Below, in pieces: positions 4,767-15,648 of a stretch of 39,993 bases of DNA. Numbering within the stretch: the stretch's first letter is position 1; the number at the start of each line of letters is the position of its first letter. The position numbers and the translations under genes are program-made. The DNA comes from a virus (Duplodnaviria > Heunggongvirae > Uroviricota > Caudoviricetes), in the IMG/VR virus record IMGVR_UViG_2623620506_000005, positions 1-39,993 of that record; one strand, given 5' to 3'. Under the pieces are notes generated by a model. That model searched no databases. It was given only the letters and a program-made list of their open reading frames with translations, and was not told where the DNA came from.

Positions 4767-4902
4767 CGAAATTAAAGAGCATTAGTTCAGATATTAATTG
4801 ACACTTCGATGGCACAGGCCCAGACCTAGTCTGGTTGTCAGCTTTGAGTCAGGTGAACGTTGGTATCGTTAGTTTGTATTAATCAACGGAGAATAGGCCA
4901 AA

Positions 4903-4932
4903 TGACTTTTCTTTGCCTCTTTTAATTATAAT
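4903..4932 (+). promoter_or_regulatory. candidate sigma70 promoter for the 5001-7799 gene
   Basis: Perfect TATAAT at 4927-4932 with TGACTT about 18 bp upstream, in an AT-rich spacer. Confidence 0.3.
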
Positions 4933-5000
4933 TCAAGTTCAATTGATTACATTGAAGTACTAATGTGAGTCCGTCAAACAAATAGCTCAAGGAATAGGTC

Positions 5001-7799
5001 ATGTGGGGAAGTGAAAACAAACAAAATCTGGACGTACTGGATCCTGTGCAGTTGGTGCGTATCGAAGCGGTACACCGGGGGTTCCTTTACCAGCATCTTT
5101 ACGCTGTAGGCTGCTTACTTTTGGCGCAGAGGGCTGCTATGGACTCAGTAACTGTCGAGCTTGATGAGGATATTGAGCTGAAATCCAAACAGGAACGTCT
5201 CTACATTCAGGTTAAAACCCGTTCAAAGCCTATTATGCCCAACGATGTGTCGGGGGCTCTGGAGCGATTTGTAAAGCTCAGAAATGAGCATACTTCGGCA
5301 AACCGCGAAGGGGTGGCTTCTTTTGTGATTATTGTAAACCAGGCGCCTGGACCGCTGCTTCAGAAGATGATTGACGATAAAAAGCTTCCTTCTGATGTTC
5401 TTATTGTCTGGCCCCGGTCGACAGCTGGACGTCACCCGGCACTTCCGCCCGCATGGAGTACTCTGGCTGATGCGGCCACATGGTGTATCGCAGAAGCAGA
5501 AAAGCTGAAATTTTCACTATTGTCCCCAGAATCCTTGATTTGGAAGTTAGCAGGGTTGGTTCAGCTTGCCGCCACCGGAGGCGATACCAATGGACAACAT
5601 ACGTTTTTCACGGAGGAACTTACTGAACTATTTGAACAGTTGATCGTTCAGCTACAGGACTTTCCTGCACCACCAGCACTGTACCGCCCACAAAACGAAG
5701 AACCTTCTCTCACATCTGGTGAGCGGATCCGTATCCTTTGTGGACTCTCAGGTGCAGGCAAGACAGCGTGGGCCGCACAGGCCGCATTACACTCCACTGC
5801 ACTTTGTGCTTATTACGACACCGGTGATCTTCCCGGTCCAGCTCTGGCCAGTACGCTGGTGCGGGAGATGGCTGCTAGATTTACAGCCCGTGACCAAGAC
5901 GGTTTGCGCAGGATTTTGCTCCCCGGAGCCAGTGGTTTTGAGGCTCTTAGGAGTTTTGATACCTACCTGAAAGAGCAGGGTACCACCTTGGTGCTGGTTC
6001 TGGATAACGCCCATCGTGTACCTGCGGAAAATCTACGGGATGTTCTGAATGCAACTACACATATTCGTTTTGTGCTGTTGTGCCAGCCTCACGAAAACGT
6101 TCGCGAACTGGAGGTCATGACGGGGCTACAGCGCGAGGGCCTGCAGGGATGGAATCTCGATACGGTAGCTGTCGTTGTAAACGATATCGGAGGATTTGCC
6201 ACCGCTATGGGATACGAGCAGCTACGGGCTTACACTGGTGGTCTTCCCCTGTATGTAGAGAGCGCCGCAAAAATCGCCGTTTCTGACTATGAGCGTAGTG
6301 TCGATGCTCTGTGTGCTGAACTCCAGCAACAAACCCATACTGCGGAAACCGCCCAAGAAATTATTCTGTCACGTGTATTTCAGGGATTTGAATCACTACT
6401 TCAGAGCGCGCTGGCATTGTTCAGTCTCTCTGACGTAGGGCTGAGTCGCGAAGAGATTTCTACGCTCCTAATCAATTCGCTGAACATTTCACCAAGCAGT
6501 GCGGCTTCTTTAATTAGGAAAATGCGCGCTACTGGCACTATTGAAATTTATGGAAACCAGACCCTGAAGGTACATGATGCTGTCAGGGGGCTAGGACTGC
6601 AACATCTGGAACTGATGGATCAGGGTATATCGAACAAAGCGCTACTAGCGCTGAAAGACCTTTTAGTTGAAAGTCTTCATAATACCCGCAATACAAAACG
6701 GTTATCGTTGTTGACTCAACTTTATATTAAGCTTAATGATGTCACGACGTTGATCGAACTCTCAGGCCAAGAAATGTTTTATGAGATGGGCGTGACGGTC
6801 GACATTCTTGCAAGCTTGGAGCGTGCTGCAACATCGGACTTATTGGGACCTGTTCATAAATTCTGGGCATTGGATGGCCTTGTTTTCGTTGAGCTTAAAG
6901 ACGGAATATCCGACCACATTGCTCAGAGGTTAAACATCATGGGAGCTTTACTTGCGGAGCACAAGTTCGGCTATCAAGAAGAGATGGCCTATGCAATGAA
7001 ACGAATGTTATTTTCGGCAGAAAGCAATGATGCACGAGAAGTTCAAAAGCTGGCACAGGAAGTCCGCCCCCAACTCCCAGATGAAGAACATAAACGCATC
7101 TTTGACTACAACCATGCCATTGCACTCTGGAGATTAAAAAAACTCAAGGATGCTGAAACATTAAGCTGTAATGTTATACAAGGGTACTATTCTTTATTTG
7201 GTATCACACCTGCTGATGTCATAGGAAAAAACGCCGACGCATTATGGAAAACTATTAATCATTCCGAAAATATGCAGGAACACTTTAAACATATGGCTGA
7301 TGCTCTGGAGTTGCTGGCCAGAATTCGTGATGCGCAGGGAAAACTGTCACCATTACTGCGTATTCATTCGATGAAGTTCTACAATCTGGCCATGGCCCCG
7401 GAATCCATGGTCAGGGTGGGCCAAGATCTGGCGGATGAGTTTGTTGCCATAAAGGATTACGACGGTGCCAAGGAAGTCATGGAGCAACATGTCCTGCCGG
7501 TTGTCAATGAGGCAGGTCTAGTACATCGACTGATTCAGGTTCGAAGCCAGTACGCAGTCATATTGGCACTATCGGGTCAGCATAAAGCAGCTGATGTCGA
7601 AATGCAGCGCCTTGCTCCCTATATCGAAGGCCTCACAGGTGTACAGCGTCAAGAAATCCAAAATCAATCAAATTACATCGTACAGCTTGCCCATAAAGCA
7701 GCAAAGACTAAATTAACTGAAGTTTTTGGTGCGGTCGGCCGGAATGAACAATGCCCCTGTGGCTCGGGAATAAAGTACAAAAAATGTCACGGTGCCTGA
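5001..7799 (+). CDS. large multidomain protein: N-terminal PD-(D/E)xK-like nuclease domain (Cap4/DUF4297-like), P-loop NTPase, helical repeat region, C-terminal SEC-C zinc motif; candidate anti-phage defence protein
   Basis: 932 aa, AAGGA RBS. Residues 53-72 VELDEDIEL...IQVK (acidic cluster plus QxK); Walker A GLSGAGKT (248-255); Walker B-like LVLVLDNAH (331-338); about 550 aa helical region; C-terminal CPCGSGIKYKKCH. Confidence 0.7.
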   Translation: MWGSENKQNLDVLDPVQLVRIEAVHRGFLYQHLYAVGCLLLAQRAAMDSVTVELDEDIELKSKQERLYIQVKTRSKPIMPNDVSGALERFVKLRNEHTSANREGVASFVIIVNQAPGPLLQKMIDDKKLPSDVLIVWPRSTAGRHPALPPAWSTLADAATWCIAEAEKLKFSLLSPESLIWKLAGLVQLAATGGDTNGQHTFFTEELTELFEQLIVQLQDFPAPPALYRPQNEEPSLTSGERIRILCGLSGAGKTAWAAQAALHSTALCAYYDTGDLPGPALASTLVREMAARFTARDQDGLRRILLPGASGFEALRSFDTYLKEQGTTLVLVLDNAHRVPAENLRDVLNATTHIRFVLLCQPHENVRELEVMTGLQREGLQGWNLDTVAVVVNDIGGFATAMGYEQLRAYTGGLPLYVESAAKIAVSDYERSVDALCAELQQQTHTAETAQEIILSRVFQGFESLLQSALALFSLSDVGLSREEISTLLINSLNISPSSAASLIRKMRATGTIEIYGNQTLKVHDAVRGLGLQHLELMDQGISNKALLALKDLLVESLHNTRNTKRLSLLTQLYIKLNDVTTLIELSGQEMFYEMGVTVDILASLERAATSDLLGPVHKFWALDGLVFVELKDGISDHIAQRLNIMGALLAEHKFGYQEEMAYAMKRMLFSAESNDAREVQKLAQEVRPQLPDEEHKRIFDYNHAIALWRLKKLKDAETLSCNVIQGYYSLFGITPADVIGKNADALWKTINHSENMQEHFKHMADALELLARIRDAQGKLSPLLRIHSMKFYNLAMAPESMVRVGQDLADEFVAIKDYDGAKEVMEQHVLPVVNEAGLVHRLIQVRSQYAVILALSGQHKAADVEMQRLAPYIEGLTGVQRQEIQNQSNYIVQLAHKAAKTKLTEVFGAVGRNEQCPCGSGIKYKKCHGA

Positions 7800-8075
7800 G
7801 TCTTTGTACGACCATGCGGGCCTTATTGTCTTGCTATTGCTCTTATGGTTCGCCTTTCTGATTGATTTCATATTGGCGAGGTGACGGGAGTTAAGTAGAA
7901 TTGCTGCGGGTGCTTGAGGCTATCTGCCTCAGGCATGAACACCAAAGGCAGATAGAGAAAAGCCCCAGTTAACATTACGCGTCCTGCAAGACGCTTAACA
8001 TTAATCTGAGGCCATATCTATGCGACACATAGAGATTAGCCTCTTACGGACCGAAAGGTCAAGGAGAAGCAGGCT

Positions 8076-8231
8076 ATGAAGCAGCAAAAGGCGATGTTAA
8101 TCGCCCTGATCGTCATCTGTTTAACCGTCATAGTGACGGCACTGGTAACGAGGAAAGACCTCTGCGAGGTACGAATCCGAACCGGCCAGACGGAGGTCGC
8201 TGTCTTCACAGCTTACGAACCTGAGGAGTAA
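8076..8231 (+). CDS. hok: Hok/Gef-family type I toxin (small membrane toxin)
   Basis: 51 aa, MKQQKAMLIALIVICLTVIVTALVTRKDLCEVRIRTGQTEVAVFTAYEPEE; near-identical in pattern to remembered Gef/HokC. Not in ORF track (<60 aa). Confidence 0.85.
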   Translation: MKQQKAMLIALIVICLTVIVTALVTRKDLCEVRIRTGQTEVAVFTAYEPEE

Positions 8232-8300
8232 GAGACCAGGCGAGGGAGAAATCCCTCGCCACCTCTGATGTGTCAGGCATCCTCAATGCACCCGCACTTA

Positions 8301-8325
8301 ACCCGCTTCGGCGGGTTTATTTTAT
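8301..8325 (+). terminator. rho-independent terminator downstream of hok
   Basis: Hairpin ACCCGC-TTCG-GCGGGT followed by a T-run. Confidence 0.6.
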
Positions 8326-10815: not shown

Positions 10816-11868
10816 ATGGAGAATCTTGTGAACATTCAGGCAGTAGACATTTTTTGTGGTGCGGGGGGCTTAACTTTTGGGCTAAAAAAAGCCGGGATTG
10901 AGGTTTCTCATGGTATTGATATTGATGAATCCTGCCGTTTTGCTATTGAGAGCAATAATCCTTTAACGCAGTTCATTAATCAGTCAGTTACAGAACTGCA
11001 ATCCTGCGATGTGTCTGCTATGTTCAGGGAAGGAAATATTAGATTGCTTGCTGGATGTGCTCCTTGCCAACCGTTTTCCAAGTATCGTAATCCAAATAGC
11101 CGTAAAGACGATACAAAGTGGCGTTTGTTATATGAGTTTCAAAGGCTTGTAAGTGATGTCATGCCAGAGCTTGTGACGATGGAGAATGTTCCTCAACTTA
11201 GAAACCATAAGGTTTTTGAAGGGTTTGTTAGTGCATTAAAGACTCTTGGATATCATTTGTGGTACGACGTTGTAAGATGTTCTGAGTATGGCTTACCTCA
11301 AAATAGACGTAGATTAATTCTAATTGGTTCCCAATTGGGGCCGATCAGCCTTGATCAAAAAAAAGTTAGCCGTAAAGTTACTGTTAAGGATGCTATTGGT
11401 AGGTTGCCAAAAGTAGGGGCAGGTGAGAAGCTGGAAAGCGATCCCTTGCATCGTTCGCCTAAATTGATGGATATCAATCTTAAACGAATCATGCATTCTT
11501 TACCTGGTGGTACATGGGATGACTGGCCTGAAGAAATTAGAGCAGACTGTCATAAAAAGAATTCAGGTGCTACCTATAAAAGCGTTTATGGACGGATGGT
11601 TTGGGACGATACTAGCCCTACGATAACTACCCAGTGTTATGGATATGGAAATGGACGATTTGGCCATCCTGAGCAAAATCGCGCCATAACTTTGCGTGAA
11701 GCTGCGATTTTGCAATCCTTTCCAATGGATTATAAATTCCTTGACAAGGAGACGCCTTTTTCATTCCAAAAATTGGGGACAATGATTGGAAATGCTGTTC
11801 CCCCTATAATTGGTCAGATAATAGGGGAAACATTTATCAGACATGTTGAGGGGATAAATACCCGTTAG
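10816..11868 (+). CDS. DNA (cytosine-5)-methyltransferase
   Basis: Motif I FCGAGG, motif IV PCQPFS, ENV motif, C-terminal GNAVPP. Confidence 0.9.
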   Translation: MENLVNIQAVDIFCGAGGLTFGLKKAGIEVSHGIDIDESCRFAIESNNPLTQFINQSVTELQSCDVSAMFREGNIRLLAGCAPCQPFSKYRNPNSRKDDTKWRLLYEFQRLVSDVMPELVTMENVPQLRNHKVFEGFVSALKTLGYHLWYDVVRCSEYGLPQNRRRLILIGSQLGPISLDQKKVSRKVTVKDAIGRLPKVGAGEKLESDPLHRSPKLMDINLKRIMHSLPGGTWDDWPEEIRADCHKKNSGATYKSVYGRMVWDDTSPTITTQCYGYGNGRFGHPEQNRAITLREAAILQSFPMDYKFLDKETPFSFQKLGTMIGNAVPPIIGQIIGETFIRHVEGINTR

Positions 11869-12526
11869 AGGTAATATAATTTTCTGTTGAGTTGATTAAT
11901 AAACGCAAATATAGATCAATTCTTTCTGACCTCGATTTGACTTCTTCTAAAGGGTCTATTTGACCTTTTTTAGAAAAGCTGGTACTTCCATGTGCCAGCT
12001 CATTTCTGATATCTTTAAGTAAATCTAAGTCAACGCCATTTCTACACTCTGGTGAGTTTGCAACAGTTATTCCGTAAGCTTGTGTTATTTTGTGCAATAC
12101 AGACTTGCAAACATTACCATTGAATTCTTTACGTATGTTTAATGAGGCTGAAATGATCCTTTTAGATATATCGGAACCAATTTTTTGATAAAGAGATTTT
12201 CCCGATTCATTATCTGAAATGATACGGTGCAAGATATTTACTTGGAATTTCTCCCTGAGTGATGCGTAATTTACTTCATTATCTTGCAAATGGTCATAAA
12301 TTGACTCAATGCATCCTCTGGCAGTGTTTTCAACCTGATTGTACAGCATCATGTGCACGGATGATTTTAAAATGTTAACCCTAAGGGTATTAGATTCTAT
12401 TTCATCTTTATGCGTTTGCTGATCTAAATGCTGAGTCTGAGCCTCTAAAGATGACGCAAGAGAAAGCAATTCCATAATATCTCTTGCTCTTTCTTCGTAT
12501 TCATCTCTTAAATCAATCAAACTCAT
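11837..12526 (-). CDS. HEPN-domain protein (MAE_28990/MAE_18760-like), putative RNase partner of the DUF262 protein
   Basis: 229 aa; Rx4H motif RNELAH (R174..H179) near the C-terminus; start 2 nt downstream of the DUF262 stop. Confidence 0.6.
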   Translation of the reverse strand: MSLIDLRDEYEERARDIMELLSLASSLEAQTQHLDQQTHKDEIESNTLRVNILKSSVHMMLYNQVENTARGCIESIYDHLQDNEVNYASLREKFQVNILHRIISDNESGKSLYQKIGSDISKRIISASLNIRKEFNGNVCKSVLHKITQAYGITVANSPECRNGVDLDLLKDIRNELAHGSTSFSKKGQIDPLEEVKSRSERIDLYLRLLINSTENYITSNGYLSPQHV

Positions 12527-12528
12527 AG

Positions 12529-13686
12529 TTACATTCCTAATAATTTATCTTTGACATAAAATATTCTGTTTTTGAGTTGGCTGGTGTTGTTGGCACTATC
12601 AGCAGTAACTATGGTTTCAAATTCCTCCCCAAACAGCCAGTCTCCTACAGGAATAACCGGAGCCTGTAGATGTGGATTGGCTTTTAAGGCAAGAGCAGTT
12701 CCCACTGCTATGGCTTCGTATCTTGCACGGGGGGTGGTTTTACTTGTTGCTGTCTTTTTAAACCCCATAGGAAAATGAGCATCTACAAAAGCAAGCATGC
12801 TCTCAAAATCATGTTTAAAATTGTCAACATCTTGTTGTGTAACCCTTTCGGCTTGAACATTAAGATAATTGTCAATAAAAGGAGCGACATAACCCTTATA
12901 ATTTTCTAAATCATTTAAGTATGCAAAAAATCTCAAAACTAACTCACGATGATCGCCATTCGAACGCTTCCTGTCTGATAATGGAGCTAGGCTAGCGAAA
13001 AGTGGATTTGTTGAGCAAGGGGTCACAACGTCTCTATAGAAAATTGAAGTAGCCGCATCTGAACCATGTCTAACCTCCATAGCTTCCAATCTCTTAACAC
13101 CTGAGTTTATCCTTTCGAATAAATCTCTCCTATGTTGCTCCTCAACATCACCTTTCAATTCAATAAATCTTAGTGATGCCCTTAAAAATCGTCTTTGGCG
13201 ACTAGCCAAAAGATCTGAAAATTTGAAACCCTCTAAACTTTTGAGTTCTTTTAAATCTTTTAATTCAAACTGATTGTTCCAAAAGTAATAAATTGAGCGA
13301 ATCCTTTGTGAGCCGTCAATGATTTCTACCCGACCATCCAATTCTGGATCTTCATTAAATACGTCTGCAATGTAAAGATACGGTATTGGAAAATCTAATA
13401 ATATGCTTTCGATAAATCGAGAGGCTGTTTTGATATCCCATTTGTAGTCGCGTTGATAATCAGGAATAAAAAGTTCGTTTTTGTCAGTTTCAAGATTATC
13501 GCCATACTTTTGTACAATTACTTCAACGGTCCATTCACGTACGTTGTATCCAATGCTTCTCTGTGCGAGCCTAATCTCGTTGTCGGCAGAGGTGACCAAG
13601 GCTGCGATTTCAGCCTTTTTTCTGTTTTTCGCGTTTTCATCTTGAATCTGATCAAGCTCTTCTTTAAGTTCTTTGAGTGTAGTCAT
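12529..13686 (-). CDS. DUF262 (ParB/Srx-like NTPase-nuclease) domain protein
   Basis: 385 aa; DUF262 hallmarks IPDYQRDYKW (76-83) and IIDGSQR (122-128). Confidence 0.8.
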   Translation of the reverse strand: MTTLKELKEELDQIQDENAKNRKKAEIAALVTSADNEIRLAQRSIGYNVREWTVEVIVQKYGDNLETDKNELFIPDYQRDYKWDIKTASRFIESILLDFPIPYLYIADVFNEDPELDGRVEIIDGSQRIRSIYYFWNNQFELKDLKELKSLEGFKFSDLLASRQRRFLRASLRFIELKGDVEEQHRRDLFERINSGVKRLEAMEVRHGSDAATSIFYRDVVTPCSTNPLFASLAPLSDRKRSNGDHRELVLRFFAYLNDLENYKGYVAPFIDNYLNVQAERVTQQDVDNFKHDFESMLAFVDAHFPMGFKKTATSKTTPRARYEAIAVGTALALKANPHLQAPVIPVGDWLFGEEFETIVTADSANNTSQLKNRIFYVKDKLLGM

Positions 13687-13712
13687 ATAACAGTTCCTTT
13701 AATTGAATATGG

Positions 13713-13741
13713 ATTGTAAGAAAACTATAACGCGTACGCAA
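13713..13741 (-). promoter_or_regulatory. candidate sigma70 promoter for the DUF262-HEPN operon
   Basis: Minus strand: TTGCGT (-35) - 17 bp - TACAAT (-10), about 25 bp upstream of the DUF262 ATG and its AAAGGA RBS. Confidence 0.4.
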
Positions 13742-13934
13742 AAAATATTGTATCGTGTTAAGAGTGGTTGCTTCGCCACGCAGCTTAAAACCGCCGCAGA
13801 GCGGGTTTTTTTATGCCTGAAAATTGCTGCAGTACGTTAAACGCGCTGGTGGTTGCGAATACTGATCTTTCAGCTTGCTGGCTTTTTGGACAAGAGTTAT
13901 TGGTATGTCACGTTAACCAGAAAAGGGAAAAGAC

Positions 13935-14132
13935 ATGCTAAAACAGCAGGATATGACTGAAACCGCCAGAGTGGTATTTAATGAATTAAGCGTCACCGAA
14001 CCGGCGACCGTCGGGGAAATTGCGCAGAATACTTACCTTTCACGCGAACGCTGTCAGTTAATACTGACCCAGCTTGTTATGGCGGGTCTGGCAGATTATC
14101 AGTTCGGTTGTTACAGACGCCTTCCTCAGTGA
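13935..14132 (+). CDS. small winged-helix-like DNA-binding protein (possible regulator)
   Basis: 65 aa, RBS AAAAGGGAAAAG; HTH-like PATVGEIAQNTYLSRERCQLILTQLV. Confidence 0.4.
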   Translation: MLKQQDMTETARVVFNELSVTEPATVGEIAQNTYLSRERCQLILTQLVMAGLADYQFGCYRRLPQ

Positions 14133-14282
14133 AGGCTTTTTTATTTGTGGTAATGGGCGGCTGGTGGGTGTTAGCGGCACCTGCCAGCCATCTGCTCATG
14201 CGTTGGGGTCACAAGCAAACCTCAGGCCCATCTGCTTTGCGCAAAAGCGGTATGAGCCTATCAGAGAAGTGCTTATTGATCT

Positions 14283-15329
14283 ATGGCTAATACTGTAAAA
14301 ATATCCAGTTGTGAGTTAATCAACGCTGATTGCCTGGAATTTATCCAGACCTTACCGGAAAACTCTGTCGATCTTATAGTCACAGACCCGCCATACTTTA
14401 AAGTGAAACCCGAGGGCTGGGATAACCAGTGGAAGGGCGACGATGATTATCTGAAATGGCTGGACCGATGTCTGGCGCAGTTCTGGCGGGTACTGAAGCC
14501 TGCCGGAAGTCTCTACCTGTTCTGTGGTCATCGCCTGGCATCTGATATCGAAATCATGATGCGTCAGCGCTTTAATGTACTGAACCACATTATCTGGGCG
14601 AAGCCGTCCGGACGCTGGAACGGATGCAACAAGGAAAGCCTGCGGGCGTATTTCCCGGCAACAGAACGCATTCTGTTTGCAGAACATTATCAGGGGCCAT
14701 ACCAGCCCAAAAATGACGGCTATGCGGCAAAGGGGCGCGAGCTAAAACAGCACGTCATGGCCCCGCTGATTTCTTACTTTCGTGATGCGCGTGAATCACT
14801 GGGAATAACGTCAAAACAGATAGCGGAAGCCACCGGAAAGAAAAACATGGCTTCGCACTGGTTTGGTACCAGTCAGTGGCAGTTACCGAACGAGGGTGAT
14901 TACAACAAATTGCAGGAGTTGTTTGCGCGTGTTGCGGCAGAAAAACATCAGCGCGGGGAACTGGAAAAGCCACACCACCAGCTGGTCAGCGCATACAGTG
15001 AACTGAACCGGCAATATGCCAGCCTGCTGGCAGAGTACAAATCTTTACGGCGTTATTTTTCCGTATCGGCTGCTGTTCCTTATACGGATGTCTGGACGTA
15101 CAAGCCAGTGCAGTATTATCCGGGCAAACATCCCTGTGAAAAACCAGCGGATATGTTACGTCAGATAATTACCGCCAGCAGTCGTCCGGGAGACTTGGTT
15201 GTCGACTTTTTTATGGGGTCAGGCTCCACAATTAAAGCCGCAATGACGCTGGGGCGTCGGGCAATTGGTGTGGAACTGGAAAAAGAGAGATTTAATCAAA
15301 CTGTAACTGTAATAGAAAATAATCTTTAA
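14283..15329 (+). CDS. DNA N6-adenine/N4-cytosine methyltransferase (beta-class, DPPY)
   Basis: 348 aa; DPPY at 35-38; C-terminal AdoMet motif VVDFFMGSGST. Confidence 0.85.
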   Translation: MANTVKISSCELINADCLEFIQTLPENSVDLIVTDPPYFKVKPEGWDNQWKGDDDYLKWLDRCLAQFWRVLKPAGSLYLFCGHRLASDIEIMMRQRFNVLNHIIWAKPSGRWNGCNKESLRAYFPATERILFAEHYQGPYQPKNDGYAAKGRELKQHVMAPLISYFRDARESLGITSKQIAEATGKKNMASHWFGTSQWQLPNEGDYNKLQELFARVAAEKHQRGELEKPHHQLVSAYSELNRQYASLLAEYKSLRRYFSVSAAVPYTDVWTYKPVQYYPGKHPCEKPADMLRQIITASSRPGDLVVDFFMGSGSTIKAAMTLGRRAIGVELEKERFNQTVTVIENNL

Positions 15330-15494: not shown

Positions 15495-15570
<76 letters not shown>

Positions 15571-15573
15571 TAT

Positions 15574-15648
<75 letters not shown>

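Follow-up and report, generated by a model that had tools for sequence, protein, structure and literature searches.

A predicted single-gene Avs-type STAND receptor with a SEC-C tail carried by a lambdoid prophage

A long gene was analyzed in a viral sequence of 39,993 nucleotides (nt) (IMG/VR record IMGVR_UViG_2623620506_000005, positions 1 to 39,993; this whole stretch is called the window). The gene encodes a protein of 932 amino acids (aa), which is probably a single-protein, NLR-like antiviral STAND receptor of the Avs type and a lysogen-protecting cargo of a lambdoid prophage. The order of the modules, the near-invariant nuclease and nucleotide-binding residues, the lack of a conserved partner gene, and the residence in mobile and defense-associated DNA are directly supported. 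By analogy with characterized receptors, the 932-aa protein would very probably have anti-phage activity, and a closed-to-open switch, an oligomer, a DNA target, and an abortive outcome would be expected on the same grounds.

The open reading frame (ORF) was found at 5001..7799 (+), exactly where an earlier note on this sequence had placed it, and the motifs listed in that note were all present at the residues it gave. The ORF starts with ATG, and by database search its translation was 100% identical to an annotated E. coli gene and to the homolog P0001. In one search, 933 homologs were detected. An exhaustive profile search (E <= 1e-30) gave 388 representatives at 50% identity, nearly all of which were 880-960 aa long and collinear throughout, so that a chance ORF can be dismissed. 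The family alignment comprised 37 members with 49-81% identity to the query, whereas conservation was counted in an alignment of 219 full-length relatives with identities as low as 28%. Across the 37 members, the Pfam domains AAA_22 (37/37), Cap4_nuclease (36/37), and SEC-C (34/37) were recognized. The parts of the gene and its product are as follows, with the tetratricopeptide repeat abbreviated as TPR and the nucleotide-binding oligomerization domain as NOD.

5001..7799, + strand: complete coding sequence, 932 aa plus stop, in the ORF list; identical to WP_021564393.1 and read as a single-gene Avs-like STAND receptor
5040..5645, + strand: predicted Cap4/DUF4297-type PD-(D/E)xK nuclease effector domain, about residues 14-215 (approximate bounds)
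5157..5216, + strand: nuclease catalytic motif E53-x-D55-x-D57-x-E59 ... Q70-x-K72, from conservation; invariant in the 37-member alignment
Residues about 14-215: alpha/beta domain in the AlphaFold2 model
Residues about 216-239: disordered linker in the AlphaFold2 model
5718..6152, + strand: STAND nucleotide-binding domain, about residues 240-384, Rossmann-like P-loop domain in the model (Pfam AAA_22, AAA_16)
5742-5765, + strand: Walker A, GLSGAGKT, residues 248-255; K254 in 219/219
5988-6008, + strand: Walker B, LVLVLDN (LVLVLDNAH is residues 330-338); D335 in 219/219
6153..6341, + strand: helical domain of the NOD (helical bundle), about residues 385-447
6237-6251, + strand: GLPL-type motif GGLPL, residues 413-417; P416 in 219/219
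6342..6620, + strand: predicted winged-helix domain, about residues 448-540; in the model, helices at 448-511 and then a beta-hairpin at 514-524
6570-6578, + strand: MHD-like motif VHD, residues 524-526; H525 in 214/219 and D526 in 209/219
6621..7727, + strand: TPR-like alpha-helical repeat sensor, about residues 541-909, all-helical in the model
7740..7793, + strand: C-terminal SEC-C (SecA-like) predicted metal-binding knuckle, residues 914-931 (Pfam PF02810)

The N-terminal module was assigned to the nucleases. The letters VELDEDIEL...IQVK lie at residues 52-72, and the catalytic residues were kept almost without exception, i.e., D55 in 217/219, D57 in 219/219, Q70 in 219/219, and K72 in 218/219 relatives. 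Pfam Cap4_nuclease matched residues 25-77 with 27.1 bits (cutoff 26.2), and the match took in only the first 63 of the 200 positions of the profile. The earlier note had suspected a Cap4/DUF4297-type nuclease here and had made this suspicion depend on profile searches; the Cap4_nuclease match answered that point, and the profile and fold searches together bore the call out. In the alignments, hardly any variation was seen at the nuclease and NTPase residues throughout the family.

The middle of the protein showed the features of the STAND superfamily, i.e., a P-loop with Walker A, a helical domain with GLPL, a winged helix with its His, and the NOD fold. Pfam AAA_22 was found at residues 239-364 (34.8 bits, cutoff 27). 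Residue 336, following the Walker B Asp, was Asn in 209/219 and Asp in 10/219 relatives. A Walker B that keeps the Mg-coordinating Asp but has another residue for the catalytic acid would suggest that nucleotide is bound and only slowly hydrolyzed. The STAND-like NTPase, which had first been recognized by its Walker motifs, was thus extended by a GLPL-type motif and by an MHD-like His-Asp pair in the predicted winged helix.

An AlphaFold2 model was built on the family alignment, with a mean predicted local distance difference test (pLDDT) of 79.8 and a predicted template modeling score (pTM) of 0.50. Two independent fold searches backed the three large modules. In Foldseek against the PDB, the archaeal STAND-TPR protein PH0952 (6mfv) came first (E 8e-14), and SeAvs3 with terminase (8dgc) was next (E 2e-12). 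The further matches were, in order, a wheat resistosome, EfAvs5, Cdc6/ORC-type ATPases, Hachiman HamA, and CBASS Cap4. The proposed TPR-like helical sensor was also recovered, by the model as well as by the fold searches. This sensor is the most variable part of the protein (2.1-2.3 bits per column, versus about 1.8 for the nuclease and the nucleotide-binding domain), and it was free of indels in the 219-relative alignment despite this variability. The layout of an Avs protein is therefore present in one polypeptide, i.e., nuclease (about 14-215), NOD (240-540), and TPR-like sensor (541-909).

The same order of nuclease, STAND NOD, and TPR-like sensor in one gene is known from Avs3 (SeAvs3, 8DGC) and SeAvs7. 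The Cap4 domain of SeAvs7 is at residues 2-225, and in its apo NTPase domain a conserved His545 belongs to the nucleotide pocket; the counterparts in the present protein are about residues 14-215 and H525. SeAvs3 is much larger (about 2,000 aa, versus 932 aa), and the sensor here is only about 370 aa. The Walker B DN and the SEC-C tail belong to the present protein and set it apart from Avs3 and Avs7. PH0952 (6MFV) is an archaeal STAND with a TPR sensor and uncharacterized function, but it has neither a nuclease effector nor a SEC-C tail. The earlier note pointed out the size, much shorter than typical Avs proteins. This size does not stand in the way, as the solved EfAvs5 chain has 833 aa.

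Defense systems were scanned for with PADLOC v2.0.0, and NCBIfam and PHROG scans were also run. In all three scans, only partial domains were matched, those of PADLOC being LmuA, DUF4297, HamA, and SEC-C-bearing models. Membership in Avs1-Avs5 (AVAST I-V), PD-lambda-4 (Avs8), Lamassu, Hachiman, and CBASS was rejected, with only partial-domain matches found. Avs7 was rejected by size, SeAvs7 being estimated at about 1,500 aa from a complex of about 250 kDa (1:1:1). Cap4 of CBASS, LmuA of Lamassu, and HamA of Hachiman share the PD-(D/E)xK Cap4/DUF4297-type fold and the D...QxK motif. There, control of the nuclease lies with SAVED and cyclic oligonucleotides, with LmuB (an SMC protein), or with HamB (a helicase), whereas none of these controllers is fused or adjacent here. 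The protein has no SAVED domain and no cyclase was found in any neighborhood, which rejects CBASS; no SMC gene adjoins it in E. coli, nor in the majority of the other contexts, and only its nuclease domain is LmuA-like, which rejects Lamassu. Because the SAVED domain, the cyclase, LmuB, and HamB are all missing, the protein is not a component of CBASS, Lamassu, or Hachiman. The earlier note had left room for an already characterized family, and no Avs/AVAST, Lamassu, CBASS, or Hachiman model was matched in PADLOC v2.

The combination of domains, which the earlier note did not recognize as a named system, is less new than it was taken to be. The exact protein, WP_021564393.1, is entry 193 of 656 seed NTPase domains (NTPase residues 227-435) in Table S1 of a preprint (Lee...Koonin, Gao 2026, bioRxiv 10.64898/2026.01.04.697583), and the novelty was overstated for this reason. 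That seed list consists of known defense STANDs and of BLAST hits with effectors such as Cap4 and Mrr. The residues after the NTPase end (435) amount to 497 aa, above the 400-aa sensor threshold used there. At least 90 structurally distinct defense-associated STAND families were defined, and Avs7 and Avs10-24 were named as new families (Lee et al. 2026). About 30 sensor clusters were assayed with a preference for Enterobacteriaceae proteins, and EcAvs19 and EcAvs22-24 were named among others (Lee et al. 2026). The protein would count as already known if it were one of the numbered Avs families.

Several points weigh against the assignment to Avs-type receptors. No AVAST or PD-lambda-4 model was matched in the PADLOC v2.0.0 scan, so Avs membership rests on architecture and fold. 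When the HMMER family profile was searched against PDB chains, no sequence similarity to any solved Avs was detected, and the SEC-C motif alone matched. The pTM was only 0.50, and the inter-domain geometry of the model is unreliable for this reason. The Walker B DN departs from the canonical hhhhD[D/E]. On the query itself, the Cap4_nuclease match was barely above the cutoff and covered only the first third of the profile, a doubt that was removed by the family, since 36 of the 37 members carry the domain. In addition, ISEc52 splits one E. coli allele at about codon 200 (L013 4001-8052, NZ_OZ546984.1, clinical isolate), and the two halves are annotated separately, as a "dsDNA nuclease domain" protein and a "SEC-C" protein. 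This agrees with a gene that is dispensable and possibly costly.

In SeAvs3 and EcAvs4, the TPR sensor reportedly binds a monomeric conserved phage protein, ADP is replaced by ATP, a tetramer forms, and the assembled Cap4 or Mrr nuclease degrades DNA. SeAvs7, a Cap4-STAND-TPR protein, is described as acting by sensor binding, a NOD switch, and its nuclease (Lee et al. 2026). By analogy, the present protein would rest as an ADP-bound closed monomer, in which His525 of the winged helix would touch the nucleotide and the nuclease would be sequestered. During infection, the TPR sensor would clamp a monomeric protein of the infecting phage. This binding would open the NOD, and ADP would be exchanged for ATP. 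The NOD and Cap4 domains would then oligomerize, probably as a tetramer, and the assembled nuclease sites would cut double-stranded DNA indiscriminately, so that the infection aborts. With the Walker B Asn, i.e., DN in place of DD or DE, hydrolysis may be slower and the active, ATP-bound state may last longer.

The SEC-C tail is the only unusual feature of this receptor. The knuckle letters CPCGSGIKYKKCH were found at residues 918-930. Pfam SEC-C (PF02810) matched residues 914-931 with 38.8 bits (cutoff 20.4), in keeping with the C-terminal SEC-C read earlier from the letters and with its presence in 34 of the 37 aligned members. Among the 219 relatives, C918, C920, and C929 were kept in 172-173, and position 930 was His or Cys in 175 (141 His and 34 Cys). 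The family profile matched, among PDB sequences, only the C-terminal zinc/iron-binding peptides of SecA and YchJ-C. Aligned to the E. coli SecA peptide, the tail was identical at 16 of 21 positions by manual count, with CxC...CH flanked by GRN and KYK. In the family alignment, the tail also keeps a conserved Ser that is linked to metal preference by Cranford-Smith et al. The pLDDT of the tail was low (47-68) following the last helix, and in the model the tail is probably flexible.

The same CxC...CH knuckle is found in the SecA C-terminal domain, YecA, and YchJ, and in SecA, too, a flexible linker carries it at the very C-terminal end. Unlike in a translocase or chaperone, the knuckle here belongs to the scaffold of a predicted immune receptor. 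According to Cranford-Smith et al., the metal-binding domain of SecA binds SecB and ribosomes, and iron is probably bound in vivo. The tail could therefore dock the receptor on SecB or the ribosome, where the host factor would be a structural co-factor or where its perturbation by phage would be sensed. Activation would then depend on this host factor and not simply on a free phage protein being bound directly. This docking is considered rather unlikely, although the identity to a SecB-binding peptide with the conserved Ser kept, and the position behind the last helix as an appendage of low pLDDT, similar to the tethered domain of SecA, speak for it. Avs7 uses EF-Tu as a structural co-factor, which makes a host-factor tether of interest here, and DnaJ sensing by bNACHT25 is cited as well (Lee et al. 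2026). A receptor tethered in this way might encounter phage proteins that are still unassembled monomers, during or shortly after their synthesis, or might guard the secretion-chaperone pathway, and the chance given to either is equally small.

The distribution of the tail bears on the docking from both sides. The tail was present in 169-170 of 219 full-length relatives (about 77%), and a rough neighbor-joining tree inferred it to be ancestral, both of which speak for the docking. The same tree required at least about 35 state changes, i.e., losses, and for 33 of 49 tail-less members the nearest relative bears the tail. The core function does not need the tail, as this repeated loss among close relatives indicates. 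Some tail-less members occur in Pseudomonas, and Pseudomonas encodes SecB. SEC-C is also found in proteins whose roles are unrelated, e.g., YchJ, a DNA-binding, redox-responsive regulator that contains this motif. The tail-less proteins end cleanly after the last sensor helix, and together with the repeated loss and the tail-bearing nearest relatives this marks the tail as a modular, dispensable accessory. It is probably an optional localization or partner-binding peptide outside the core switch. In three of the approximately 50 SEC-C-less members (P0153, P0243, and P0245), strongly Lys/Arg-rich C-termini were found instead, e.g., ...KNRKNKLKEQKIQRRKNRRK. Such tails hint at a terminal appendage that may attach electrostatically to a partner of acidic or polyanionic nature.

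The SEC-C knuckle also matched the C-terminal ends of the PADLOC models E2, E1-E2, and PDC-S12, and of phrog_18195. In the lactococcal antiphage protein Rugutis, SEC-C is placed at the N-terminus. Rugutis, carried by a plasmid, is like the present protein a single-gene product with a terminal SEC-C, and its antiphage activity is experimental; it differs in its 359 aa, in the N-terminal position of the knuckle, and in an otherwise unknown fold without nuclease or STAND module. Apart from Rugutis, no literature joining SEC-C with STAND or anti-phage proteins was found. From these sequences, SEC-C seems to have been added repeatedly to the ends of defense-associated proteins, and its place at the ends of the PADLOC models and at the start of Rugutis is a further point for docking on SecB or the ribosome.

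The surroundings of the gene were compared in a sample of about 10 contexts, without statistics. In Vibrio cholerae, full-length GajA and GajB are encoded directly upstream on the same strand, with AbiH further upstream and PDC-S06 downstream. In Yersinia and Pantoea, a different GajA subtype with GajB adjoins in divergent orientation. In Pseudomonas, AbiH lies 61 bp downstream, within a metal-resistance mobile region, and the neighbors in Variovorax are DruA, a helicase resembling DruE, and an HNH gene. Plasmid records with family members numbered 54, including IncHI1B plasmids and Pseudomonas megaplasmids (E. coli and Pseudomonas). The neighbors differed in every genus sampled and no conserved partner gene was found, and on this basis the gene is a single-gene module that travels with defense islands and mobile elements. 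The association with such DNA that characterizes Avs proteins is likewise seen, i.e., Gabija in three genera, a prophage slot, and plasmids.

Gabija adjoins the STAND gene in two independent arrangements with two GajA subtypes (L002 3754-7778; L007 and L009-L011 4511-7655). The V. cholerae GajA is of type PDLC00065, and that of Yersinia and Pantoea is of type PDLC04168 with an identical 345-bp gap. In a sample of this size, the co-location may be chance or functional pairing. Gabija or AbiH as an obligatory partner was rejected, since neither occurs beside the gene in E. coli, Serratia, or Variovorax or on the plasmids.

In Serratia ficaria, no defense genes were present and the STAND gene stood alone among housekeeping genes. 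This copy, and the interspersion of defense and non-defense STAND clades (Lee et al. 2026), would suit a non-immune STAND, i.e., a MalT-like regulator or a housekeeping or repair nuclease that hitch-hikes in mobile DNA. Such an origin is judged most improbable, as the protein has no DNA-binding output domain and instead ends its signaling in a Cap4-type nuclease, whose catalytic motif is intact. The gene is moreover sporadic and horizontally transferred, with plasmids, a prophage, and 0.3% of complete E. coli genomes (16 of 5,426) as carriers, and defense-island neighbors recur.

The window itself matched a Qin/Rac-like lambdoid prophage integrated beside rspAB/ynfA. The gene order is a YdaT-like gene, a 358-aa gene without Pfam match, DUF977, the STAND gene, sok/hokD, DUF968, RusA, and Q. 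The downstream block of hok, DUF968, RusA, and Q had been read correctly in the earlier note, but its label of "replication genes" for the upstream part is positional only. The proposed accessory slot beside hok proved to be real, since the cargo found between DUF977 and hokD varies. Related prophages of E. coli have QueH, ParA, DUF551/DUF4014, DUF7167, or nothing in this slot (window 4767-5000 and homologs). All copies in the 16 E. coli genomes were at least 99% identical, and they were annotated only as "SEC-C metal-binding domain-containing protein". The three copies examined occupy the same DUF977-hokD slot with differing immunity regions and Q/RusA modules around it, so the prophages are mosaic. 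In an IMG/VR scan, only copies with 93-100% identity from the same prophage lineage were found, and phage carriage hence seems confined to one enterobacterial prophage lineage. Two "UNVERIFIED Bacteriophage sp." fecal contigs carry relatives with 34-40% identity, but these contigs are unannotated and gave no further information.

The features around the gene in the window are listed below.

4927..4932, + strand: candidate -10 hexamer TATAAT, present in the sequence and proposed in the earlier note
4989..4993, + strand: Shine-Dalgarno AAGGA, read in the sequence, 7 nt 5' of the ATG
7873-7901: promoter-like site, probably the hok mRNA promoter
7908-8078: sok (Rfam, 106 bits), part of a complete hok/sok type I toxin-antitoxin locus directly downstream of the STAND gene
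8076-8231: hokD
8300-8317: terminator-like hairpin of the hok/sok locus
10816-11868, + strand: C5-cytosine methyltransferase
11837-12526, - strand: MAE_28990-type HEPN protein, without PADLOC match; pairs with the DUF262 gene
12529-13686, - strand: DUF262/GmrSD_N protein (PADLOC NsnA E 1e-45, PD-T4-2_A E 8e-27)
14283-15329, + strand: N6/N4 methyltransferase
15495-15648: prophage-borne tRNA-Thr(UGU) and tRNA-Gly(UCC), downstream of the methyltransferase

The position next to hok/sok raises another explanation, in which the gene is a module of mobile-element competition or addiction that is triggered by proteins of a rival plasmid or prophage, or by loss of the element, and stabilizes its carrier as hok/sok does. 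The presence on conjugative and mega-plasmids and in the metal-resistance mobile regions of Pseudomonas would agree with this, and Avs21-type sensing of recombination proteins means that triggers need not be virion proteins. Only a slim chance is given to it, because no cognate antitoxin or partner was found, the architecture is that of ligand-activated receptors and not of toxin-antitoxin pairs, and the closest companions are anti-phage systems, e.g., Gabija and AbiH. Its mechanism would also overlap largely with defense.

Just after RusA and Q, a second accessory block of low G+C content (35-40%) was found at 10816-15329. By its gene content, this block looks like another defense cargo with accompanying methylases. 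In the related prophage L014, tRNA-Ile/Arg/Arg are encoded at the place equivalent to that of the two tRNA genes.

For expression of the STAND gene, the earlier note had proposed a promoter with TATAAT. The hexamer is present, but the sigma-70 scan made no call, and the best -35 found by eye matched at 4/6 positions with a spacer of 19 nt. In the 240 bp upstream of orthologous loci in other genera, no conservation was found beyond the Shine-Dalgarno sequence and a short leader; GAGGA or AAGGA at the Shine-Dalgarno position is the sole upstream element kept across genera. No terminator was predicted between the DUF977 gene and the ORF, nor between the ORF and the hok promoter. Read-through from the early-right operon is equally possible, given this lack of a predicted terminator after DUF977, and from the sequence signals, expression from an own promoter in the lysogen is plausible.

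The protein adds a family to a kind of system that is already known, and only the SEC-C tail could change thinking about it. Without the SEC-C link, the family is a well-supported but expected addition to a class that has at least 90 structurally distinct members. If the reading as an antiviral receptor is true, a compact (105 kDa) Cap4-nuclease Avs family joins the bacterial pattern-recognition receptors. Its members are widely distributed in Gammaproteobacteria and also occur outside this class; the family spreads on prophages, megaplasmids, and islands, and its small sensor is attractive for trigger identification and structural work. The lambdoid prophage would then be stacking protective cargos, i.e., the STAND gene, hok/sok, and the DUF262-HEPN pair with methyltransferases. 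If the link to SecB or the ribosome is true, NLR-like immunity would be connected to the translation and secretion machinery, as a second and mechanistically distinct repurposing of a host factor by an Avs after EF-Tu in Avs7. Such a tether would also explain the recurrence of SEC-C at the termini of unrelated defense proteins (Rugutis, PADLOC E2, and PDC-S12).

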